NCBI GenBank assembly: GCA_964392925.1
Contig: CAYMRP010000004.1
Coordinates: forward strand, 71,184 to 135,183
Length of the DNA stretch: 64,000 nucleotides
Direction of reading: 5' to 3'
Source of the DNA: an uncultured Gammaproteobacteria bacterium
GTDB taxonomy: Bacteria > Patescibacteriota > Microgenomatia > Daviesbacterales > UBA10151
Positions within the stretch are counted from its first letter, which is position 1. The number at the start of each line of letters is the position of its first letter. The position numbers and the translations under genes were made by a program. The notes under the pieces are model-generated. The model saw nothing but the letters and a program-made list of their open reading frames with translations. It was not told the DNA's origin and did no database searches. This document shows, in pieces, positions 51,850 to 63,784 of the stretch.

Positions 51850-53358
51850 TTAATTTACCGGTAAGCTTGATGAAGTGCCTGCCGAAGCAGCTGGACTGCC
51901 GCTAGGTGTTGGTGAAGCTTTTTGCTGAGCAGCTCTCATCGCCGGGCTAAGCGATGCTGCTGGACTTGAAGCAGGGTCTGGTGATCCGCCTACTGTAGGT
52001 GCTGGTAATGCAGTGTCTGTTGTTGGTTCCATGACTGGAACTGGAGATGGGGCAACTATTTGTGCCGGAGGATTAGTTAATGGAGCTTGTGTCTGTTGTG
52101 TTTCTTCAACAGGTAAAGAAGTTTCATCTGTAGGTGTTGGATTAGCTTGCCCCACTCCTAATATTAAATAAGCACTTAAAGCTGCAACTATCAGGATAAT
52201 TGGAATACCCGCAACTAAAAGTACTTTTGTTAAATTTAAATGCTTACCAGGAGGTGGAGCATCGCCTTCTGCTGATTGTGGTGTTGCAGAAGCCGGAGCC
52301 ATATTCAAGTTCTGATCAGCTGCAACTGGTGGGGTATAAACTCCATTCGTCTGCGAAGGTGCTGTCTCGTCACCTGCAATTAAATGCGATAAATCAGTTG
52401 GGGCATTCTCAACAGGTCCCATGTCCGGAAGAGGGGAGGCTGTAGGTGCGGCTGCAGCCTGATCAGGTTGTATTGGTGCTTGCATAGCAGCTGGATCTGC
52501 AGGCGGAGTAGTTGTAGCCCCGAGTCCCGATTGAAGTCCTGATAAATCCATCGATCCGGGTTGCGGCTGTGAGGACATAGTTTGATCCTGAATTTGGGCA
52601 GTTTCTTGTGGTGGGTTTCCAGGCTGGACATTTAGATCAATAGTAGGTGTCGCCATTGGGTCAGACATCGAAGCTGCTACTGGCGCTGCGGTTGGCGCTG
52701 AGAACTGTGACTCTGCCGGAGCCGGTTGATCCCAAGGATTAACAGTTGGTGCAGCAGGCTGAGTAGGATCACTAGGTAGCGCCGTAGCTCCTTCAAACGG
52801 ACTCTGCGGAGGAGTCGGAGTGAATGCTGTATTCAAAGGATCAGGTGGAGTAGTTGTCTGAGCACCGTATGGTGCGGCTGGTTGTTCAGGCAAAGGCGTA
52901 GGTGCTGCAGGCTGTTCAAAGGGAGGTGATGTATTAAAAGTCCCTGCTTGAGGCTGTAAAAAAGGATTAGCGGCTGCCGGATTTTCACTTGGCACTGCTG
53001 GTTCTGGAGGTGCCATCGGAGCTGTTGGTACATCTGTCGGAACAGTCGCTTGTGGGGTAGGCGGCCACGCCGCTCCTGAACTTGCGGTCGGTGTACTTGG
53101 CAATGGTGAAGAAAATCCAGGTTCTGGTGCAACAGTTTCAACCGGTACCGGGCTCCAAGGATTAGGAGCAGCTGTTGGGTTTGATTGGGCTGGATCTGAC
53201 ACAGGCATACTGGAAGAAAGGGGAGCTGATGTTGCCGATTGGTCAGGACTGCTGGACCATCCTGGAGTTTGTTGTGGAGGGGTTAATGGATCAACAGGGG
53301 CTGCGCCAAAAGGTAAACTAGGATTGTTATTTGGATTATTAGGGTCATTACTATCCAT
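51850..53358 (-). CDS. 502-aa Pro/Ala/Thr/Gln-rich low-complexity protein with a single TM helix near residue 380
   Basis: One continuous ORF, visibly GC-richer than its flanks. The TM span is VLLVAGIPIILIVAALSAYLILGV, with K/H residues on its N-terminal side. Confidence 0.6.
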   Translation of the reverse strand: MDSNDPNNPNNNPSLPFGAAPVDPLTPPQQTPGWSSSPDQSATSAPLSSSMPVSDPAQSNPTAAPNPWSPVPVETVAPEPGFSSPLPSTPTASSGAAWPPTPQATVPTDVPTAPMAPPEPAVPSENPAAANPFLQPQAGTFNTSPPFEQPAAPTPLPEQPAAPYGAQTTTPPDPLNTAFTPTPPQSPFEGATALPSDPTQPAAPTVNPWDQPAPAESQFSAPTAAPVAASMSDPMATPTIDLNVQPGNPPQETAQIQDQTMSSQPQPGSMDLSGLQSGLGATTTPPADPAAMQAPIQPDQAAAAPTASPLPDMGPVENAPTDLSHLIAGDETAPSQTNGVYTPPVAADQNLNMAPASATPQSAEGDAPPPGKHLNLTKVLLVAGIPIILIVAALSAYLILGVGQANPTPTDETSLPVEETQQTQAPLTNPPAQIVAPSPVPVMEPTTDTALPAPTVGGSPDPASSPAASLSPAMRAAQQKASPTPSGSPAASAGTSSSLPVN

Positions 53359-53490: not shown

Positions 53491-56292
53491 ATGCTTAATT
53501 TTTTTTCTTCATTAATCGATGCCAATAAACGGGAAATTAATCGCCTCTCAAAAATCGTTGAAACCATTAATAGTTATGAAGCTAAAATCAAAAAGTTTGA
53601 CGATAAAAAGTTTAAAGAAAAAGCTCTAGATCTACGTAAAAGACATGAAAAAGGTGAAACCTTAGAGTCTCTTTTACCTGAAGCTTTTGCTTTCGCCCGC
53701 GAAGCCGCTAGCCGCAGCCTAGGCATGCGTCACTATGATGTTCAGCTAATGGCAGCCATCGCTTTGCACAGCGGTAAGATCGCCGAACAACGAACCGGTG
53801 AAGGAAAAACTATGTCTGGTGTTCCGGCCATTTTTCTAAATGCTCTTTCCGGTAAAGGTGTCCATGTAGTTACGGTAAATGATTATTTAGCTCGCCGCGA
53901 TGCAGGTTGGAATGGACCTATCTTTCATACTCTAGGTGTTTCAGTCTCAGTTATTATTCATGAAAAGGCTTTTCTTTTTGATCCAAAATATAAAGATCCA
54001 GACACAACAGATAAACGGCTTAAGAATTTAAGACCAGTCACTCGCAAAGAAGCTTATGCTGCTGATATAACTTACGGCACTAATAATGAGTTTGGTTTTG
54101 ATTATCTAAGGGACAACATGGCCAACAGCTTGGATAATATGGTTCAGCGAGGTCACAATTTCGCCATCGTTGATGAAGTAGATTCAATTTTAATTGACGA
54201 GGCCCGTACTCCATTAATTATTTCAGCCCCCGATACTGAGCCCACAGGTAAATATATTGAGTTCACCAAAATCGTCAGTCAGCTTGATGGTAAAACAGAT
54301 TATGTAGTTAACGAAAAAGAACGTGCAGCCCACATGACAGAGGAAGGTATTCTTCATATCGAAAAAATTATGGGTGTCGATAATCTTTATGAAAAAGATT
54401 TTTCTGCTCTTCACCATATAGAAGAAGCCTTAAAAGCCAGAACCCTTTTTCTTAAAGACCGCGACTATGTTGTTAAAGATGGCGAAGTAATTATTGTTGA
54501 TGAATTCACTGGCCGTTTAATGCCGGGCCGCCGTTACTCCGGAGGTCTACATCAATCAATCGAAGCCAAAGAAGGCGTTAAAATCCAACAAGAGTCAAAA
54601 ACTTTAGCCACAATTTCTTTCCAGAATTACTTCAGAATGTATAAAAAGCTTTCTGGTATGACTGGAACTGCAGCCACCGAAGCAGAAGAATTCTTTAAAA
54701 TCTATAAGCTGGAAGTAGTTATTATCCCAACTCATCAACCTATGATCAGAAAAGATAATCCTGATGCTATCTTTAAAACCCAAACCGGTAAATTGATGGC
54801 CGTCGCCTCAGAAGTTGAAAAAATTCATGCATCTGGCCAGCCTGTTTTAGTAGGTACAACTTCGATTGATAAAAACGAATTCTTATCTGAACTCTTAAAG
54901 AAAAAGCGGATCTCCCACGCACTTTTAAATGCTAAAAACCACGAACGCGAGGCCGAAATTATTGCTGATGCCGGTCAAAAAGGTTCAGTAACTGTAGCCA
55001 CTAACTTAGCCGGTCGTGGTGTCGATATTAAGCTTGGTAAAAATGTTGAAAAATTAGGCGGACTTTATGTTATCGGTACCGAACGTCACGAATCAAGGAG
55101 AATCGATAATCAATTAAGAGGCCGCTCAGGTCGTCAGGGTGACCCGGGTGCTTCCAAATTCTTTGTTTCTCTTGAAGATGATTTAATGAGAATCTTTGGC
55201 GGCGAGCAAGTCGCAAGAGTCATGGGCTTTTTAAAAATGCCGGAAGATACTCCTATCGAAAACGGTATGGTTTCCAAAGCAATTGAAGGCGCACAGAAAA
55301 AAGTTGAAGGTCATAATTTTGATATCCGTAAACATACAGTTGAATACGACGACGTTATGAATCAGCAGCGCCAGATTATTTATGGTGTCAGAAGGAATGT
55401 CCTGGATGTCTTAGCTGGAAAATCCAAAGATGGTAAATCTCTTAAGGATGAAATCATCGAAAAAATCGGCATTGAAGTCGAAGCCATCATTGATGACTAT
55501 GCGATTGAAGGGGAGATAGAATATGAAAAAATTATCGAAGATTTCTCAACCATAATTAATTTTGATCAAGCCAGCCGTAAACAGCTATTAGGCCAAATCT
55601 CAGATATCAAAGATGAAGCTAAATTAAAAGAATTTTTAGTCCGTCTCGCCGAAGATCTCTACGGTGAAAAAGAAAAAACCGTCGGTGCCGATCTGATGCG
55701 CCAAATGGAAAGCTTTGTTTACTTAAACACAATTGATACTTTTTGGATGGAACATCTCGATACAATGGATGATCTTCGCTCAGGTATCGGATTGCGCGGA
55801 TATGCCCAAAGAGATCCTCTAATCGAATATAAAAAAGAAGGCTTTGAGTTATTCGAAAAAATGATTGCTGAAATTGATTCAGAAATTGCCAGACGTATCT
55901 ATAAAGTCTCAATGCATAATCATGGGCCAGTCCAGGTTGTTTCTCCAATCGATATGTCAAAAGCCGTCGCAACCCACGATGAGGCGCTCGATGAAAAAAC
56001 CTTACTTGAAGAAGTCGGCCAGCTTATGCCGTCAGTTCCTGAAGTTCGCCACAGCGGAACCAAAATCAAAGTTGAAGGCTCAAGTAATGATGAGGCATAC
56101 TCTCAGACTCCGACTGTAGTCGAAGAACCAGTTGCTGCCGGCACCCGAGTTACTGTTGAAAGAGCCGGTCAGGTTGTCTCACAAGATGTCTATAACGATA
56201 CAGGTTCGCTCCAAAGGAAAAAGCCTGGCAGAAATGACCCCTGCCACTGCGGTTCAGGCAAAAAATATAAAAAATGCCATTATCCTAATTAG
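53491..56292 (+). CDS. secA: Preprotein translocase ATPase SecA
   Basis: Contains MRHYDVQL, GEGKT, DEVDSILIDEARTPLIIS and the C-terminal zinc motif CHCGSGKKYKKCH. The start is set at the ATG at 53491 (MLNFFSSL). Confidence 0.93.
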   Translation: MLNFFSSLIDANKREINRLSKIVETINSYEAKIKKFDDKKFKEKALDLRKRHEKGETLESLLPEAFAFAREAASRSLGMRHYDVQLMAAIALHSGKIAEQRTGEGKTMSGVPAIFLNALSGKGVHVVTVNDYLARRDAGWNGPIFHTLGVSVSVIIHEKAFLFDPKYKDPDTTDKRLKNLRPVTRKEAYAADITYGTNNEFGFDYLRDNMANSLDNMVQRGHNFAIVDEVDSILIDEARTPLIISAPDTEPTGKYIEFTKIVSQLDGKTDYVVNEKERAAHMTEEGILHIEKIMGVDNLYEKDFSALHHIEEALKARTLFLKDRDYVVKDGEVIIVDEFTGRLMPGRRYSGGLHQSIEAKEGVKIQQESKTLATISFQNYFRMYKKLSGMTGTAATEAEEFFKIYKLEVVIIPTHQPMIRKDNPDAIFKTQTGKLMAVASEVEKIHASGQPVLVGTTSIDKNEFLSELLKKKRISHALLNAKNHEREAEIIADAGQKGSVTVATNLAGRGVDIKLGKNVEKLGGLYVIGTERHESRRIDNQLRGRSGRQGDPGASKFFVSLEDDLMRIFGGEQVARVMGFLKMPEDTPIENGMVSKAIEGAQKKVEGHNFDIRKHTVEYDDVMNQQRQIIYGVRRNVLDVLAGKSKDGKSLKDEIIEKIGIEVEAIIDDYAIEGEIEYEKIIEDFSTIINFDQASRKQLLGQISDIKDEAKLKEFLVRLAEDLYGEKEKTVGADLMRQMESFVYLNTIDTFWMEHLDTMDDLRSGIGLRGYAQRDPLIEYKKEGFELFEKMIAEIDSEIARRIYKVSMHNHGPVQVVSPIDMSKAVATHDEALDEKTLLEEVGQLMPSVPEVRHSGTKIKVEGSSNDEAYSQTPTVVEEPVAAGTRVTVERAGQVVSQDVYNDTGSLQRKKPGRNDPCHCGSGKKYKKCHYPN

Positions 56293-56300
56293 GTTTTTCT

Positions 56301-56723
56301 ATGATAAAAACAGCCAGCGAAATAGTTGACCAACTTAGAACCGAAGGTCACCGTATCACCCCGATTAGAAATCGGATTCTCGATATTCTCTCCAAGAGCA
56401 CAGAGCCTATTTCGGCATTAGATTTAATAGCAGACTTTAAATCCTCAAATCTTAACGTTAACAAAACCACCATCTACCGGGAAATAGAATTTTTATTAGG
56501 CAAAAATCTTATTAATGAAGTTGAATTTGGAGATGGCAAAAAAAGATACGAGATGGATAATGGGCATCACCATCACTTAGTTTGCTTAAAGTGTGGCAAA
56601 GTTGAAGATGTTAGTTTGGAGACGGATTTATCATCGGAAGAAAAAAAGATAGAAAAAGAAACAGGTTTTAAAGTTGAATCTCATTCATTAGAATTTTTTG
56701 GAATTTGTAAAACCTGCCAATAG
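56301..56723 (+). CDS. Fur-family metalloregulator (Fur/Zur/PerR not distinguishable)
   Basis: Has a winged helix, HHHHLVCLKCGKV and a C-terminal CKTC. Confidence 0.8.
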   Translation: MIKTASEIVDQLRTEGHRITPIRNRILDILSKSTEPISALDLIADFKSSNLNVNKTTIYREIEFLLGKNLINEVEFGDGKKRYEMDNGHHHHLVCLKCGKVEDVSLETDLSSEEKKIEKETGFKVESHSLEFFGICKTCQ

Positions 56724-56743
56724 AACTTTACTAAAGGTAAGTT
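56724..56743. promoter_or_regulatory. Imperfect 20-bp palindrome (AACTTtaCTAAAGgtAAGTT) between the Fur-family gene and the flavin operon
   Basis: 7 of 10 positions are self-complementary. It does not resemble the 7-1-7 Fur/Zur/PerR boxes. Confidence 0.2.
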
Positions 56744-56808
56744 GTTTACTAACAGCGATTTTCGTGCTAACTTAATCAAGTCAAATTCAAAACGAAAGGG
56801 GGTGTTTT

Positions 56809-57291
56809 ATGGAAGAACAAGTAAATACACAAGGCAGTTTGCCGAAGTTTGTAATGCCCACTGTTGTTGCAGCTCTAATAGTGTTCGCAGTTATCGGTTA
56901 TTATTTTTATAATTCCGGCTCAAATAACTCGTCTCAGCCAGCATCCACTATGGAAGGCCAAGGTTCTCCTGCAGCGGTTTCAGAAAGTAATTCGAATTAT
57001 AAAAATGGTACTTACACCATTAACGGGGAATACGTTAGCCCAGGAGGGCCCAGAGAAATTGGGGTAACTTTAACTTTGACTGATGGTTTAGTAACCGCAG
57101 CAGAGAGTCAGGTGCTCGCCGAGGATGCCACCTCTAAAAGATTCCAAACCGAGTTCGTTGAAGGTTTTAAACCAATGGTTATTGGTAAAAGTCTAAACGA
57201 AGTCGTTCTATCAAAAGTTTCGGGCTCATCTTTAACTCCTAAAGGATTTAATGATGCTGTCGAAAAGATTAAAGTTGAGGCTCAGTCTTAA
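56809..57291 (+). CDS. Membrane-anchored extracytoplasmic FMN-binding-domain protein (predicted ApbE substrate)
   Basis: Contains YKNGTYTINGEY...GVTLTLTDGLVT...SKVSGSSLTPKGFNDAVEKI. This parallels the FMN_bind layout, including the D/S-x-x-SGA[TS] flavinylation motif position. Confidence 0.65.
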   Translation: MEEQVNTQGSLPKFVMPTVVAALIVFAVIGYYFYNSGSNNSSQPASTMEGQGSPAAVSESNSNYKNGTYTINGEYVSPGGPREIGVTLTLTDGLVTAAESQVLAEDATSKRFQTEFVEGFKPMVIGKSLNEVVLSKVSGSSLTPKGFNDAVEKIKVEAQS

Positions 57292-58170
57292 ATGATTTGG
57301 GATCAAAAGTTTAATTTTGAAGAAATAGGAACCTCATGGACTATTGAATATTCAGGAGTCTCAAAACTTTCACCTGAATTACTTATAGAAAAGATCCGCG
57401 CAGAAATTAATAAATTCTCGCGGGTTTTTTCTAGGTTTGACAAAAATTCAGCGGTTTTTAAATCAAGTAAAACCGCATCTGAGATTATTATTCCGGAAGC
57501 TTATTTACCGCTTCTAGCTATCTATAAATCTTTATATAAATTAACTGACGGTTTATTCACTCCTCTTGTTGGAAATTTACTTTCTGAATCAGGCTACGAC
57601 GAAGATTATTCTCTGGTTCAAAAAAAATTAAATCCTGTTCCGCAGTGGGACCAAGTTATTGAGATTTCCGGAGAAACAATTAAATTTAAAAAGCCCTGGC
57701 TTCTAGATTTTGGCGCGGCCGGCAAAGGATTTATTGTTGATCTGATAGGGGAGTTGCTGGAAGATCAAAATATTAAGTCCTATTGTATAGATGCCGGCGG
57801 AGACATTCGCTATAAATCTGATAACAATGAAAAACTAAAAATCGGCCTTGAGCACCCCGATAATTTAGATCAGGTTCTTGGAGTTGCAGATCTAGAAACA
57901 GGTAGTATTTGCGGCTCATCTGGAAATCGCCGCAAATGGGCAAATCTTCACCATATTTTCAACCCTAAAAAACTTGATTCTGTTAGAGAAGTCCTGGCAG
58001 TTTGGGTAATTTCAGATACTACTTTAATAGCAGATGCTCTCTCGACAGCTTTATTCTTTGTAAACCCGGAAAAGCTTTTAGGAGATTTTAAGTTTCAATT
58101 TCTAATAATTTACCCGGATTTCACTTTTAAAAAATCCCCAAACTTCCCCGGTGAAGTATATGTGGCATGA
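57292..58170 (+). CDS. apbE: FAD:protein FMN transferase (ApbE family)
   Basis: Contains GT.W.I, FGAAGKGFIVD and CIDAGGDIRY. The ATG abuts the upstream TAA. Confidence 0.8.
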   Translation: MIWDQKFNFEEIGTSWTIEYSGVSKLSPELLIEKIRAEINKFSRVFSRFDKNSAVFKSSKTASEIIIPEAYLPLLAIYKSLYKLTDGLFTPLVGNLLSESGYDEDYSLVQKKLNPVPQWDQVIEISGETIKFKKPWLLDFGAAGKGFIVDLIGELLEDQNIKSYCIDAGGDIRYKSDNNEKLKIGLEHPDNLDQVLGVADLETGSICGSSGNRRKWANLHHIFNPKKLDSVREVLAVWVISDTTLIADALSTALFFVNPEKLLGDFKFQFLIIYPDFTFKKSPNFPGEVYVA

Positions 58171-58197
58171 GATGTCCAAGTCGGGTAAACTAGAATA

Positions 58198-59718
58198 ATG
58201 TACTTACTTAATAAAATTGATTCTCTTCTAAATTCAATCACCATGTACCGGCTGGTGCTATATGTATTACTAGTCCAATCCGCATTCGCAATAATTCTAG
58301 GTTTTCTAAATCTCCTACCTTATTCCGGAATCCAATTCACACTGACGCTTCTAGTTTTAGTCATAGTTAGTTATATATCCAATTTAATTTTTGCCTGGAC
58401 CGTCAAAGCCGTAGTTAACGTAGAGTCCTGGTTAATAACTGCCTTGATTCTTTTTTTAGTCCTGGCCCCGATAAATAATTTTCAGGATTTTATAGTCACC
58501 ACTGTTATCGCGATAGTGGCTATGGCTTCCAAATACTTTTTAACTTATGACAAAAGACATATCTTTAATCCGGCCGCTTTAGCTATGTTTCTAGCTAGCC
58601 TTTTCGGTTTCGGAAATTCTATTTGGTGGATTGGAAGTTCAATTATGCTGCCTGTCGTTTTAGTAACCGGCTTATTAATTGTTAGAAAAATTAGGAGATT
58701 TAGGTTAGTGATTATGTTCCTTGTCACAGCTGTCCTAACAGTCAGTGTCTTTAATTATTTAAATGGTATTCCTCTTACCCAAGCCTTAATCCAAGTTTTT
58801 ACATCTTGGCCTTTAATCTTTTTTGCAACGATTATGTTAACAGAGCCATTCACAACTCCTCCCAACAGAGAGTTCCGAAATTACTACGGAGTTTTTACTG
58901 GAGCATTATTTGGCTCTCAATTCTCAATCGGTCCTCTTTACGCTTCTCCAGAGCTCGCCCTAGTTGCCGGTAATTTTGTGTCATTTCTTTTAAGTCCTAA
59001 GGGTAAATTAATCCTTAAGTTTAAACAAAGAAACCAACTCGCTCCAACAATTTTCGAATTTATTTTTTCTCACAATGGGAAATATAATTTTACTCCTGGC
59101 GAATATTTAGAATGGACCCTGCCTCACCCAAATTCAGATTCAAGAGGTGTCAGAAGATATTTCACTATTGCCTCCTCCCCAGAAGAACCAGATTTAAAAC
59201 TTGGGGTTAAAATTATTCCTGATAAATCAAGTAGTTTTAAAAAAGCTCTCTTGGCTTTACAGCCCGGCAGTACACTTGCCGCCGACCAACTCTCGGGTGA
59301 TTTTGTCCTGCCTAAAAATCCCTCTCAAAAATTAGTTTTTATTGCTGGAGGAATCGGGGTAACTCCGTTTCGCAGTATGATTAATAGTCTAATTGTTAGT
59401 GGCGCAAAAAAGGACATAGTCCTTTTTTATAGCGCCGCAGATCCAAAAGAATTCGTCTATAAAGATATTTTCACTCAAGCAGAATCTTCCGGACTTAAAA
59501 CAGTTTATGTTTTTGGCGGTAAAGAAGTACCGCCTGATTGGCAAGGGGAGACAGGATTTCTAAATGAAGCAATGCTCAGAAAATATGTCCCTGATCTGAA
59601 AGAACGGAAATTCTATATGTCAGGTCCTGTCGCGATGGTTAACAATTATAAAGGCCTTCTGAAAACCCTAGGCATCTCCAACTCATCAATCGTTACCGAC
59701 TACTTCCCCGGCTTCTAG
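58198..59718 (+). CDS. Fusion of an RnfD/NqrB-like polytopic membrane domain with a ferredoxin-NAD(P)+ reductase-like FAD/NAD(P)-binding domain
   Basis: The N-terminal ~270 aa carry FNPAAL and IMLTEPFTTPP (compare FFMATDPVTSP of RnfD/NqrB). The C-terminal part carries RRYFTIASSP (RxY[ST]) and FIAGGIGVTPF (GGxGxxP). Confidence 0.7.
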   Translation: MYLLNKIDSLLNSITMYRLVLYVLLVQSAFAIILGFLNLLPYSGIQFTLTLLVLVIVSYISNLIFAWTVKAVVNVESWLITALILFLVLAPINNFQDFIVTTVIAIVAMASKYFLTYDKRHIFNPAALAMFLASLFGFGNSIWWIGSSIMLPVVLVTGLLIVRKIRRFRLVIMFLVTAVLTVSVFNYLNGIPLTQALIQVFTSWPLIFFATIMLTEPFTTPPNREFRNYYGVFTGALFGSQFSIGPLYASPELALVAGNFVSFLLSPKGKLILKFKQRNQLAPTIFEFIFSHNGKYNFTPGEYLEWTLPHPNSDSRGVRRYFTIASSPEEPDLKLGVKIIPDKSSSFKKALLALQPGSTLAADQLSGDFVLPKNPSQKLVFIAGGIGVTPFRSMINSLIVSGAKKDIVLFYSAADPKEFVYKDIFTQAESSGLKTVYVFGGKEVPPDWQGETGFLNEAMLRKYVPDLKERKFYMSGPVAMVNNYKGLLKTLGISNSSIVTDYFPGF

Positions 59719-59817: not shown

Positions 59818-59864
59818 TTGACAAACGCCACAAAGTTGCATATACTTAATGCCACAAGGTTGCA
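59818..59864 (+). promoter_or_regulatory. Promoter TTGACA-17-TATACT flanked by two 14-bp direct repeats GCCACAA[A/G]GTTGCA
   Basis: TTGACA lies at 59818-59823 and TATACT at 59841-59846. The direct repeats lie at 59827-59840 and 59851-59864, 24 bp start to start, and the second ends 3 nt before the ATG. Confidence 0.6.
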
Positions 59865-59867
59865 ATT

Positions 59868-60857
59868 ATGGAAAGAAGAGAAGCCTCTAACGAACTAAAT
59901 AAATCACTAAACTCTGTTGGCTTAAGACTTGAAGGTGCCCCAAAAGTTATAATCCCTAAAACGCTTAGTGCTGAAATTCTGGCAGCAAAAGCCATCGCTA
60001 TGTCAGAAGACATGCAATATGGTTTTGATTTAGCAAATATAGTCACAGATCTCAGGCAATCTGCAATCAGAACCCTAAAAGACGGAAAGTCCTTTCCATT
60101 AGTACTGGATATACCAAACCTCGCAGATCCGAATTATGAACCTACTCCAGCTGATATTGCGCCTTCTTTGCTCGCCGCAAGTCTTGGAAGTTTTGCAATT
60201 GTCAGGATTGCTATGCCAAACTCAGATCACAGTATATCGCAGCTTTACGGAACAACTACACCCAGAACAAACATTGATGAGGGGGAACTGCAATTTACTT
60301 ACATCGGATTAAGAGTCTCGAGTAAGAGCGGTTATAAATGGGAGTCCCCCGCGCAAATAGATCCTTTAAGACCAGACCTGGTCTCTCCGGCCGATATGGA
60401 AACTTATTTATCAGGTGCAAATCAACTCGGCCTAGTTGGTGATCACGATAACTCAGGAATAAAAGTTTCAGATCCAAGACACTTAATAAATCTCCTCCAC
60501 GGCCTAGCAAATCCTGGACTTAGCGGACATTGGGCAGATGCACTTGAAAGTAATGGTCAAAGAAAACTTTTGACCGAAACATCAGCAAAAAGAATAATTG
60601 CCCCTAACGAGTTTGGCGACAGCTTGTATCAAGACCCCCTAAACACGACCCCTGTATTCACAATAGGTGCAGAGAGAATTCCCATGGCCATAGTTCTGGC
60701 CCCTGAACTTATGGAAGATATAGATTCTCTTGAAACCAGACGCAGTAATAAACCGGGAAGTCTTGAAACTTTGCAAGGAATGGCGCTCGCTGCACGTTTC
60801 GCGCAGAGATTAGGGGATAGCTTAGATCGGGCAATACCTAAAAGCGGAATGATTTAA
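59868..60857 (+). CDS. Hypothetical 329-aa soluble protein
   Basis: ORF with a strong promoter. No recognisable motif. Confidence 0.55.
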   Translation: MERREASNELNKSLNSVGLRLEGAPKVIIPKTLSAEILAAKAIAMSEDMQYGFDLANIVTDLRQSAIRTLKDGKSFPLVLDIPNLADPNYEPTPADIAPSLLAASLGSFAIVRIAMPNSDHSISQLYGTTTPRTNIDEGELQFTYIGLRVSSKSGYKWESPAQIDPLRPDLVSPADMETYLSGANQLGLVGDHDNSGIKVSDPRHLINLLHGLANPGLSGHWADALESNGQRKLLTETSAKRIIAPNEFGDSLYQDPLNTTPVFTIGAERIPMAIVLAPELMEDIDSLETRRSNKPGSLETLQGMALAARFAQRLGDSLDRAIPKSGMI

Positions 60858-60859
60858 CT

Positions 60860-61396
60860 ATGCTAGAGACAGCATCACCTAAAAAATTATTTGGAAAGAA
60901 AAAAATAGAATCTCAGGATATATCAACTCATTCTTTGGGAAACCCAATTCTAATAACAGAAACTCTCGACATTTTTAACCAAAGCCTGAGTGCCGAGATT
61001 ATAAAACAGGACCAGCAAATTACAGAGGTCCTTAAAAAAACATCAGATAACTTTATTAACTTCACAGGTCCTAAAGTTTTAGATTGGAATAAAAGTACTG
61101 GAAGAATAGCATTAGCAGAAAGTGTCATCAAAAATTCCGAAACCGAGTTTTTAGCATTCCGGCAAAGAATGACCGCTATGGCAGATGCTGATGGTTGCGG
61201 TGGTAAAAATGAAATTGCAAAATCTTCAGAGTCTGCTCTTTCTTCAAATGCGAATGTTATAGATTTTGGACAGGCGAAATTAAACAAAGCCTTAGGGATA
61301 AATAATAAACATACTCATAAATCAGGGGAACACGATCATTGTTCTCACGGCAATGATTACGGAGAATGCCCTAGCGGTTGTAAAAAAGCAGCCTAA
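60860..61396 (+). CDS. Hypothetical 178-aa protein with a His/Cys-rich C-terminal module
   Basis: Contains DGCGGKNE...VIDF...HTHKSGEHDHCSHGNDYGECPSGCKK, a layout like the tail of the 35601 ORF. The ATG lies 2 nt after the upstream stop. Confidence 0.55.
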   Translation: MLETASPKKLFGKKKIESQDISTHSLGNPILITETLDIFNQSLSAEIIKQDQQITEVLKKTSDNFINFTGPKVLDWNKSTGRIALAESVIKNSETEFLAFRQRMTAMADADGCGGKNEIAKSSESALSSNANVIDFGQAKLNKALGINNKHTHKSGEHDHCSHGNDYGECPSGCKKAA

Positions 61397-61417: not shown

Positions 61418-62497
61418 ATGAAAAAAATCCTAGCAGTACTTCTCCTTTTTCTTGCGTTACAAATATCTCCTGCTTTAGCTCAGGAAAACTTAGATCAGAC
61501 CATAAATTCCTCTGGGTATTCAACCCCGACCGATGAAATAAAACTTGAAGGTGTAGTTTTAGAAGATGGAAAAAAAGTCGAAGTGACCTCTCCTAACCGG
61601 CAGGGCGAAATTCTAAATACTGAGCAATCTTTTAATGCCCCTAATTCTCCGAGTTTTAAAAATGGTGATAAAGTAAAAGTTTCAATCTTTACGAATCCTG
61701 ATAACTCTCAGCAAATTTTCATTACTGATTTTATTAGAACCAGCCCGCTTTATTGGCTGTTCGGGTTATTTGTTTTGCTTGTTTTAATAATAGGAAAAAA
61801 ATCAGGACTCGGCTCGCTCGTCGGTATGGCTATATCTTTTGCAGTTCTATTCCTTTTTATTGTTCCCCAAATAACCGCCGGTCAAAATCCAATCTGGACT
61901 ACTTTAATTGGAGTATTATTTATTCTTCCTATAACTTTTTATCTATCCCACGGCATCAATAAAAAAACTACTATTGCTCTTGTTTCAACTTTTCTTTCTG
62001 TTTGTTTTACCAGTCTATTATCAATCTTCTTTATTAATACCGCCAAAATTTCCGGCTATGCTAGTGAACAGGCCGGCTTTATTCAAACTGCCAGAAGCGG
62101 AAGCTTCGATATTCAGGGATTATTATTTGCCGGAATTGTAATAAGCATAATTGGTATTCTGGATGATGTCACTATTTCTCAGGCCTCCATTGTTAATCAA
62201 CTGAAGATCGAACTACCAAAAGCTAAAGTGCTAGAGCTTTATAAAAAAGCTATGAATATTGGTCGCGATCATATTGGCTCTGTTGTAAATACGTTAATTC
62301 TTGTTTATGCCGGCGCATCCCTGCCGCTTTTAGTTTTATTCACAGACAGCAGTATTGGTTTTAACGAAGCGCTCAACAATGAAATAGTCGCCGAAGAAAT
62401 AGTAAAAACTCTGGTTGCCAGCATCGGACTTGTTCTATCAATTCCTTTGACCACAATTCTGGCTGCTTATTTTCTCAGTAATGACAAAGAAGCTTAA
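61418..62497 (+). CDS. YibE/F-family membrane protein
   Basis: Has a signal peptide, a soluble N-domain and a polytopic region with GILDDVTISQAS and MNIGRDHIGSVVNTL, as in the YibE/F family. Confidence 0.65.
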   Translation: MKKILAVLLLFLALQISPALAQENLDQTINSSGYSTPTDEIKLEGVVLEDGKKVEVTSPNRQGEILNTEQSFNAPNSPSFKNGDKVKVSIFTNPDNSQQIFITDFIRTSPLYWLFGLFVLLVLIIGKKSGLGSLVGMAISFAVLFLFIVPQITAGQNPIWTTLIGVLFILPITFYLSHGINKKTTIALVSTFLSVCFTSLLSIFFINTAKISGYASEQAGFIQTARSGSFDIQGLLFAGIVISIIGILDDVTISQASIVNQLKIELPKAKVLELYKKAMNIGRDHIGSVVNTLILVYAGASLPLLVLFTDSSIGFNEALNNEIVAEEIVKTLVASIGLVLSIPLTTILAAYFLSNDKEA

Positions 62498-62862
62498 GAA
62501 TTAATAATTGCTCTTGTCGCTTCAACATCCCTGGCCATTTGTGCAGTCAAATCTTTCTTATCAGGAAAATTCATAACTGGTCTTAAAAATTTAATAACTT
62601 CAACTTCGAATTCACGGGAATTCGGAATATCCGATTCCTTCGTATCAATTAAAAAGAACTCCAATGTTTTATCATCTTCTAAGAAAACCGGAATCGGCCC
62701 GTAATGCATTGCACCAATAAATTCTTTGTCTTCAATAAAAACTTTAACTGCATAAATTCCGTCATCTAAAATTAAGTCTGTTGGGATTTCTAAATTGATT
62801 GTTGGGAACCCTAAGATCTTCCCCCGGCCCTTCCCTTTAACTTGTGTGCTCTTAAACCTCAT
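62494..62862 (-). CDS. Monofunctional riboflavin kinase (RibF C-terminal-domain type)
   Basis: Contains GKGRGKILGFPTINL and GIYAV...GAMHYGP..., the riboflavin-kinase beta-barrel signature. No FAD-synthetase domain is attached. Confidence 0.8.
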   Translation of the reverse strand: MRFKSTQVKGKGRGKILGFPTINLEIPTDLILDDGIYAVKVFIEDKEFIGAMHYGPIPVFLEDDKTLEFFLIDTKESDIPNSREFEVEVIKFLRPVMNFPDKKDLTAQMARDVEATRAIINS

Positions 62863-63784
62863 GCTTTAATTGTAGTGAAGATAATCTCCAAATACTAAAC
62901 ATCAAAACCGCAGCTGCCAATAATTGAGTTGGAGCCAAGAATGTTTTATACAAAACTGCATCAATAATAATAGTTAACACCGGAAACACTAATTCCAAAA
63001 TAGTCGCCACCCTAACTGGAGTCTGTTTAAGACCTTTGTAATAGATAAGCAGTGCCACCATACCAGTCGATAAAGCAATAAATCCAAATTTTAGAAACTG
63101 CGAAAAATCTGGTGTAAACAATTGCGGCATCGCCCCTAGAAAAATAATAAATGGAATAGCCAAAATTGTTGTAAAAATAAATCGTAGTCCGGTAACTGTA
63201 TTAGAGTCATACTTTGTTAAAGCCATTTTAGAGAATGTTGTCGAAGTTCCCCAAGCAAACGCTGCTCCTAACGCAAATAAAGCTGCAGTTGCAGTTCCGC
63301 TGCCAGTCCCAAAATTAACCACCCCACCAGGGAAAGTGACAAAGTATGCAGCCGCAAATGCTAGGAGTGCCCAAGGTAAATAACTCTTTTTAATCGGTTC
63401 TTTAAGAAAAATTATCGCCGAGGAAATTGCAAAAATCGGCTGTAGTTTTTGGAGTAAAAATACGACAGAGAAAGGGATGAAGTTAACTTGCAAAAGTGCA
63501 GTTGTAAACCAAAGTGTACCTAATACACCGCTAAGCAACCCAATCACAATTAAAAGTAAAAATTCTTTCCGGGTTAAACGGACAGTAATTAATTTTTTCC
63601 AGATAAATGGAATTAAAATTAATAGTCCTATTAGATGCTCATAAAATACAATAATAATCGGCGGTAAAGAATAAAGGCTCCGTCTAACAACTCCGTCCAA
63701 AGCCCAAAGCACTGCTGCCGTAATAATTAATACTGGCCCTACTTTTAAAATATGTTTAATGAAGTGATTCATATAGATCCCCAC
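62852..63784 (-). CDS. EamA/DMT-family transporter (candidate riboflavin importer, RibN/ImpX-like by context)
   Basis: Has 10 TM spans in two EamA halves. The GTG start at 63784 lies 9 nt after AGGAG (alternative ATG at 63772). The gene overlaps the riboflavin kinase by 11 nt and lies downstream of the FMN riboswitch. Confidence 0.7.
   Translation of the reverse strand: MGIYMNHFIKHILKVGPVLIITAAVLWALDGVVRRSLYSLPPIIIVFYEHLIGLLILIPFIWKKLITVRLTRKEFLLLIVIGLLSGVLGTLWFTTALLQVNFIPFSVVFLLQKLQPIFAISSAIIFLKEPIKKSYLPWALLAFAAAYFVTFPGGVVNFGTGSGTATAALFALGAAFAWGTSTTFSKMALTKYDSNTVTGLRFIFTTILAIPFIIFLGAMPQLFTPDFSQFLKFGFIALSTGMVALLIYYKGLKQTPVRVATILELVFPVLTIIIDAVLYKTFLAPTQLLAAAVLMFSIWRLSSLQLKHEV

Follow-up and report, generated by a model that had tools for sequence, protein, structure and literature searches.

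Bacteria of the candidate phyla radiation (CPR) have very few recognisable redox systems, and a short gene cluster in an uncultured, CPR-type organism bears on how electrons might pass from NAD(P)H to the other side of the membrane in such cells. The cluster lies in a stretch of 64,000 nucleotides (nt) of contig CAYMRP010000004.1 (assembly GCA_964392925.1), hereafter the window. It comprises genes for a Fur-family regulator, a flavin mononucleotide (FMN)-binding partner protein, an ApbE-family transferase, and a fusion of an RnfD/NqrB-like membrane domain with a ferredoxin-NAD(P)+ reductase (FNR)-type module. The locus is a further member of the already catalogued NQR/RNF-like systems, and this flavinylation-associated electron-transfer system probably carries NAD(P)H electrons outward. 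The features concerned are the following:

56301-56723 (+): Fur-family metalloregulator, 140 amino acids (aa); Pfam FUR (PF01475), E = 7e-28 (97.6 bits)
56809-57291 (+): NqrC/RnfG-like FMN-binding partner, 160 aa; assigned on fold-level evidence
57292-58170 (+): ApbE-family flavin adenine dinucleotide (FAD):protein FMN transferase, 292 aa, leaderless; Pfam ApbE, E = 2e-41
58198-59718 (+): RnfD-like::FNR-like fusion, 506 aa; NAD_binding_1, E = 5e-16; NQR2_RnfD_RnfE, 28.0 bits
58198-59001 (+): RnfD/NqrB-like membrane domain of the fusion, residues 1-268
59002-59718 (+): FNR-type FAD/NAD(P)H-binding module of the fusion, residues ~270-506

The listing of open reading frames returned these four genes with the order, strand and gaps given in a preliminary description of this DNA, namely 85 nt between the Fur gene and the partner gene, 27 nt between ApbE and the fusion, and an ATG of ApbE that abuts the TAA of the partner gene, an in-frame stop immediately 5' of ApbE. 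Partner gene and ApbE share a reading frame in the window, with this single TAA between them (57289-57294); read-through joining the two proteins was considered and rejected, since relatives show a 1-nt overlap in a different frame. All the motifs quoted earlier were present: SKVSGSSLT at residue 135 of the partner, IDAGGDI at residue 166 of ApbE, and FNPAAL, MLTEPFTTPP, RRYFTIASSP and GGIGVTPF at residues 123, 213, 319 and 384 of the fusion. The profile search that had been proposed recovered FUR, ApbE, NAD_binding_1 and, marginally, NQR2_RnfD_RnfE in the window's proteins, but neither FMN_bind nor FAD_binding_6. The two doubtful domains, the partner and the membrane half of the fusion, were judged at the fold level on predicted monomer structures, and in these models the FMN_bind and RnfD/NqrB assignments hold.

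The membrane half of the fusion reached 28.0 bits against NQR2_RnfD_RnfE (PF03116; cut-off 27.7), aligning with profile positions 165-259 of 296 only, and profile alignment paired its residues 150-258 with RnfD 220-327 (E = 1.6e-4). This partial match just above the cut-off, together with the predicted fold, supports the RnfD/NqrB type assigned earlier. No counterpart of the RnfD segment ~100-220 was found in the fusion by sequence alignment, and the score against TIGR01946 rnfD (17.4 bits; cut-off 207) indicates that the protein is not RnfD proper. Loop charges are consistent with about ten crossings and with both termini inside, a positive-inside pattern that bears out the cytoplasmic location expected for the FNR module. 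NCBIfam aligned residues 275-503 with many FNR-type reductases, including NqrF, and both sub-domains of the plant-type FNR superfamily are present, Pfam FAD_binding_6 itself being undetected. The membrane half (residues 1-270) contains a single His (H121), as noted before, and the entire 506-aa fusion contains no Cys; a motif search of the membrane half found no covalent FMN site (the Thr of SGAT). Bis-His heme and iron-sulfur centers are excluded by the single His and the lack of Cys, and therefore the transmembrane step must be carried by flavins in the RnfD-like domain. In solved complexes the electron path through RnfD/NqrB runs via FMN and riboflavin, a parallel to the fusion. A heme-based ferric-reductase mechanism, already deemed unlikely in the preliminary description, was rejected on the basis of the single His and the unrelated RnfD fold.

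The partner consists of an N-terminal signal-anchor helix, a low-complexity linker rich in Ser, Thr, Pro and Gln, and a domain of ~95 aa whose modelled three-dimensional fold is that of FMN_bind. The predicted flavinylation residue is S141 (codon 57229-57231), inside KVSGSSLTP. In the alignment of the window's partner family, G139, S140, S141 and L142 are invariant, and S141 stands 19 residues before the C-terminus, matching the position of the canonical SGAT site in a sister subtype described below, so that a candidate residue for modification is found where it was expected. Weak Pfam FMN_bind matches were obtained for 25 of 40 partner relatives (best E = 7.9e-6), and NCBIfam detected a trace likeness of the 160-aa partner to the Listeria flavoprotein PplA (E = 0.015); the partner family profile retrieved no solved FMN_bind chain by sequence. 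Flavinylation of the variant site KVSGSSLTP is a prediction from sequence. The ApbE protein matched Pfam ApbE (PF02424) with 142.6 bits (cut-off 25.6), its residues 13-262 covering profile positions 2-251 of 266, and has intact GAAGKGF, DAGGD, HHIFNP and ADALSTA motifs, which we take, from ApbE structures, to be the FAD, Mg and catalytic motifs.

A search with the membrane half retrieved 1,366 representative clusters among 1.84 billion, 366 of them at E <= 1e-30. Approximately three quarters of the best 150 matches are 460-590 aa long, so that the fusion is the normal form. Full-length relatives were found in many CPR lineages, Ktedonospora (Chloroflexota), Alphaproteobacteria and Actinomycetota; ApbE adjoins the fusion in most of them, and the partner-ApbE-fusion order is kept in CPR, Chloroflexota, Alphaproteobacteria and Actinomycetota alike. 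Since this order is found again in dozens of loci across several phyla, a chance arrangement is excluded. The nearest named relatives belong to Daviesbacteria and Levybacteria, and a 94%-identical copy with unchanged gene order lies on a 542-kb wastewater metagenome contig.

Comparison of the loci in which partner and ApbE are both readable revealed two subtypes, partner site and ApbE type co-varying without exception. The long subtype (12 loci plus the window) combines an ApbE of 288-309 aa, scoring at least 265 bits to that of the window, with the site [LI]xKV[S/A]GSSL[T/S]P; the short subtype (12 loci, including Ktedonospora) combines an ApbE of 244-263 aa, scoring 20-48 bits, with the site VDI[IV][S/T]GA[T/S]xxS. 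In both subtypes, 17-20 residues separate the target residue from the C-terminus, and this equal distance indicates that the two sites are positionally equivalent. In a Saccharibacteria locus (L017, 1455-1982), the partner gene immediately precedes the fusion, with no ApbE between them, and its product has the intermediate site LSRIAGASDTT; the locus may represent a link between the subtypes, or its ApbE may be encoded elsewhere.

The published definition of NQR/RNF-like systems asks for a single protein that starts with an NqrB/RnfD-like membrane domain (PF03116) and ends with PF00175, encoded no more than five genes away from an ApbE or FMN-binding gene (PMC8238504); such systems have been reported mainly from Actinobacteria and CPR (Méheust 2021, eLife, PMC8238504). 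A 2024 AlphaFold-multimer model of the Ktedonobacter racemifer complex has an RnfD-like subunit without the flavinylation Thr, and led to the suggestion that the covalent FMN of the partner samples the empty flavin pocket (PMC10979944). The window has the defining architecture and flavinylation cluster, ApbE being the adjacent upstream gene, and it also has the NqrC/RnfG-like second subunit and the RnfD-like subunit without a conserved flavinylation Thr (PMC10979944). The core of the preliminary description, a chain from NAD(P)H through the FNR module and the RnfD-like domain to an ApbE-flavinylated partner, was therefore supported and is identical to the published hypothesis (PMC8238504, PMC10979944). 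Its statement that the fusion had not been characterised is correct as regards biochemistry, but the system had been defined in 2021 and modelled with AlphaFold in 2024. Pfam-based censuses may under-count the window's subtype: the 2021 pipeline demanded a signal peptide in the Pfam-recognised ApbE or FMN-binding gene (PMC8238504), and here Pfam FMN_bind misses the partner and ApbE is made without a signal peptide.

In the proposed route, whose cofactors, electron direction, partner sidedness and acceptor are predicted, cytoplasmic NAD(P)H would reduce the FAD of the C-terminal FNR module, which would take the place of RnfC or NqrF as the nicotinamide-facing end. Electrons would then cross the membrane via one or two non-covalent flavins in the RnfD/NqrB-fold domain and pass to the FMN that the co-encoded ApbE would have attached to Ser141 of the NqrC/RnfG-like partner, a single-pass protein predicted to face outward. 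This FMN would finally reduce an extracytosolic acceptor.

Several observations weigh against this route. The cluster contains no gene that can be identified as coding for an acceptor, and no biochemical study of NQR/RNF-like systems was found in the literature searched. RnfD homology is detectable by sequence over ~40% of the membrane half, and the window's partner gave no match to Pfam FMN_bind (PF04205) even at E <= 1. The flavinylation consensus is D-x-x-[S/T]-G-A-[S/T], in which the terminal Ser/Thr is modified; the D-to-A mutation has a minor effect, and alteration of G or A lowers the yield (PMC12052999). The window's site departs from this consensus, with Ser/Thr instead of Asp and Ser instead of Ala. 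In the flavinylation-type motif proposed earlier (SKVSGSSLT), the Gly and the terminal Ser are invariant, but the canonical Asp and Ala are absent. No Fur gene was found nearby at loci with <=56% identity nor in 28 full-length genome loci, the three-gene core persisting there, and the candidate operator motif discussed below shows no enrichment across the window (3 occurrences versus 1.63 expected). A last difficulty concerns the side of the membrane on which the flavin is attached. The window's ApbE begins at its catalytic core and has no signal peptide, lipobox or transmembrane segment (maximum KD19 of 0.26 at the N-terminus, and hence no hydrophobic segment), and no export signal was found in ~25 ApbE genes adjoining fusion homologs of both subtypes. 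Attachment on the outer face of the membrane, as the preliminary description had it, is thus at odds with what the sequence predicts.

The partner, in turn, has a hydrophobic, uncleaved-looking N-terminal anchor with an N-in bias, as judged from charge analysis. Among 40 members, K+R averaged 1.43 on the N-terminal side of the anchor versus 0.70 on the C-terminal side, with the N-terminal side richer in 27 and the reverse in 5. This pattern favors an N-in/C-out orientation with an outward-facing domain, and a leaderless ApbE then conflicts with flavinylation outside the cell, an issue that goes undiscussed for NQR/RNF-like systems in PMC8238504 and PMC10979944. Three readings are possible: flavinylation before export, an inward-facing partner, or an ApbE that leaves the cell by an unrecognised route. 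In the first of these, which we consider unlikely, a cytoplasmic ApbE specialised for KV(S/A)GSSL(T/S)P would flavinylate the C-terminal tail of the partner inside, where FAD is at hand, the anchored protein would afterwards translocate its FMN domain, and ApbE and site would have co-evolved as two specificity classes. If true, this route would make FAD export unnecessary in a minimal-genome organism and would represent an order of events previously undescribed for extracytosolic flavoproteins.

An inward-facing partner would imply a different system altogether. With the partner N-out/C-in and ApbE acting inside, the proteins would form a membrane-attached NAD(P)H:acceptor oxidoreductase working on a membrane or cytoplasmic substrate. 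The leaderless state of every ApbE beside the fusion fits such an arrangement, the partner anchor shows no more than a modest charge bias, and cytosolic ApbEs with cytosolic targets exist, for example in Klebsiella pneumoniae (PMC12052999). We nevertheless hold it to be quite improbable: N-in/C-out is still favored in 27 of the 40 partner members, exposed tethers typically have a linker composition of this kind, solved complexes have the FMN pocket of RnfD/NqrB on the outer side, where the published multimer docks the partner (PMC10979944), and a purely cytoplasmic reaction needs no transmembrane domain. The fold itself could instead betray an energy-coupled remnant of Rnf or Nqr, in which the RnfD/NqrB-like domain moves Na+ or H+ during electron passage and so conserves energy, or is driven in reverse by the gradient, and would be more than a one-way electron outlet. 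NqrB and RnfD belong to ion-translocating complexes (PMC12174285), and the membrane domain keeps their fold and the most conserved RnfD segment. However, gene-context tables listed no Rnf/Nqr subunit genes among the neighbours of the window and its relatives (no RnfA/E, RnfB/C or NqrD/E/A), the site at which RnfD/NqrB bind FMN covalently is missing (also PMC10979944), and RnfD ~100-220 has no sequence-aligned counterpart, all of which renders energy coupling very improbable. Outward electron transfer through flavins is the favored reading.

The significance of the Fur-family gene was evaluated in a close clade, in which the fusion shows 61% identity or more (nine distinct loci). The upstream region of the window's partner gene contains two candidate elements:

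56745-56750 and 56768-56773 (+): candidate promoter upstream of the partner gene, TTTACT and TAACTT with a 17-nt spacer
56770-56781: candidate operator, near-palindrome ACTTAATCAAGT, overlapping TAACTT

In eight of the nine loci, all but L088, a Fur gene immediately precedes the partner gene, and it keeps this place in loci where one to four other genes part it from secA (L083, L089, L092, L093). In L091 (~560-1000), on a 7-kb metagenome contig, it is frameshifted, either a pseudogene or an assembly error. The -35/-10 pair TTTACW-17-TAAnTT is conserved in position in nine orthologous intergenic regions, and an ACTT-N3-4-AAGT inverted repeat occurs at or just past the -10 in the Fur-linked loci and not in L088. 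In the intergenic region before the partner gene, L089 (2520-2550) has the perfect 24-bp palindrome ACTTGATAAGTTAACTTATCAAGT, which closely follows the conserved -10 and whose half-sites TGATAAG recall Fur/PerR boxes; it is degenerate in L093, and the window retains only ACTTAATCAAGT. Identification of the recurring ACTT-N4-AAGT repeat as a Fur box was rejected, as it is not a classical Fur box and is not enriched, and it serves as a lead only. Within the window, the Fur gene begins 8 nt after the secA stop (56292-56301), with no obvious promoter of its own, so that the two genes may share a transcript in this organism. In the close relatives L081 and L090, gene callers extend Fur upstream into secA.

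Linkage to Fur is real and clade-specific, and since it is confined to the close clade it says nothing general on the function of the system. The preliminary description took the gene as a pointer to metal- or peroxide-responsive control, which agrees with the linkage within the clade but does not extend to the whole family. It is possible, though somewhat doubtful, that Fur is a mere neighbour brought there by synteny of the SecA region, the cluster being constitutive or otherwise controlled. The lack of Fur at loci with <=56% identity and in L088, a candidate operator that is not enriched and differs from classical Fur boxes, and the 8-nt distance to secA are in line with this explanation; its persistence beside the partner gene when separated from secA, and an inverted repeat at the -10 that is missing where Fur is missing, are not. 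The regulator itself is of mixed character with respect to the Fur, PerR and Zur subtypes. NCBIfam scores were best for Bacillus-type Fur (105.8 bits) and PerR (82.5 bits), both far under the cut-offs, and the best PDB matches were Fur 9ire (85.6 bits) followed by B. subtilis PerR 2fe3 (73.3 bits). In the alignment with PerR, it has Asp opposite the Asp of PerR 'GKIVD' (Glu in Fur), Arg in the recognition helix as in Fur (Asn in PerR), and Asn where PerR 'TPQRH' has His; these residues are presumably diagnostic, and they point in both directions.

Downstream of the fusion, the window contains the following genes:

59868-60857 (+): 329-aa protein with no Pfam/NCBIfam match
60860-61396 (+): 178-aa protein with no Pfam/NCBIfam match and a His/Cys-rich tail, HTHKSGEHDHCSHGNDYGECPSGCKK
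61418-62497 (+): YibE/F membrane protein
62494-62862 (-): monofunctional riboflavin kinase, 122 aa; Pfam Flavokinase, E = 5.5e-26
62852-63784 (-): EamA/DMT-family transporter, 310 aa; Pfam EamA, E = 6e-35

The riboflavin kinase matches the C-terminal kinase part of RibF models only and has no FMN adenylyltransferase part. Its gene overlaps that of the EamA transporter, and the pair is found downstream of the fusion in all nine close-clade loci, a tighter linkage than that of Fur (8/9), which suggests a role in flavin supply. The transporter is a possible flavin importer, and the pair may salvage riboflavin for the flavoproteins; no source of FAD, the substrate of ApbE, is visible in the window. 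A Carb_kinase gene of the NAD(P)HX-dehydratase type is sometimes found beside the pair. Taken together, Fur and the kinase-EamA pair suggest that the cluster in this clade responds to metals or oxidants and has a flavin supply of its own. As to the physiological role, our best guess, made with low confidence, is reductive iron acquisition or an electron sink for NAD(P)H.

The three-gene YibE/F set lies between fusion and flavokinase, also in L089, L090, L092 and L093; across the nine close-clade loci, six have YibE/F and five have the two unannotated proteins. Just upstream of this set stands the strongest promoter-like site in the region (TTGACA-17-TATACT, 11/12 matches, 59818-59846), and the set is therefore probably a separate transcription unit. 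The tail HTHKSGEHDHCSHGNDYGECPSGCKK of the 178-aa protein looks metal-binding, and nothing relevant was found in the literature on YibE/F. On the other side of the cluster, a 502-aa protein (51850-53358, -) is very rich in Pro, Ala, Thr, Ser and Gln, with one hydrophobic helix near residue 385, no Pfam match, a local GC of 0.467 versus ~0.39, and an unannotated 501-aa counterpart in L090.

A two-protein wire built on flavins only would be one of the few CPR candidates for moving NAD(P)H electrons across the membrane, with iron acquisition, NAD(P)+ regeneration and interaction with a host as candidate uses. The interpretation is essentially the published model, and its novelty is low. The details added here are modest: two classes of ApbE and site, an ApbE that is leaderless throughout, a flavin-only membrane domain, and the clade-level linkage to a Fur-family regulator and riboflavin salvage genes. 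Three of them merit an experiment: the lack of a leader on ApbE, the pairing of a variant site with its own ApbE class, and the regulator and flavin genes linked within the clade.

Compared with Rnf (RnfD-RnfG-RnfC) and Na+-NQR (NqrB-NqrC-NqrF), the window's system has only two polypeptides, without the Fe-S carriers RnfA/E or NqrD/E, without RnfB/C and without NqrA. Its membrane subunit has no covalent FMN site and no Cys, and continues straight into the FNR module as one chain; electron flow is presumably unidirectional. NOX/FRE ferric reductases and PepSY-like::NAD-binding fusions use bis-His hemes, whereas the window's fusion has a single His in an unrelated RnfD fold. With the extracellular electron transfer system of Listeria (Ndh2/EetA/EetB/PplA/FmnB), the window's system shares an ApbE-family enzyme for flavinylating a membrane-tethered FMN_bind protein, the proposed outward path of NADH electrons, a nearby flavin supply module and a weak likeness of the partner to PplA. 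It differs in having no Ndh2, quinone step, EetA/B or lipoprotein signal, and in crossing the membrane via an RnfD-like flavoprotein domain. Furthermore, FmnB is a secreted lipoprotein served by a FAD-exporting ECF transporter (PMC9973259), whereas the ApbE of the window is leaderless.

The closest correspondence is with the NQR/RNF-like systems, with which the window's system shares architecture, taxonomic range (reported from CPR and Actinobacteria), lack of the flavinylation Thr, and a proposed one-way flow from NAD(P)H to the outside. The modelled Ktedonobacter-type clusters resemble L010, with the site VDIVTGATDTS and an ApbE of ~247 aa, whereas the window is distinguished by an ApbE of ~290 aa and the site KV(S/A)GSSL(T/S)P. 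Linkage to Fur, riboflavin kinase and EamA, undescribed in the papers that defined and modelled these systems, is present in the window's clade.

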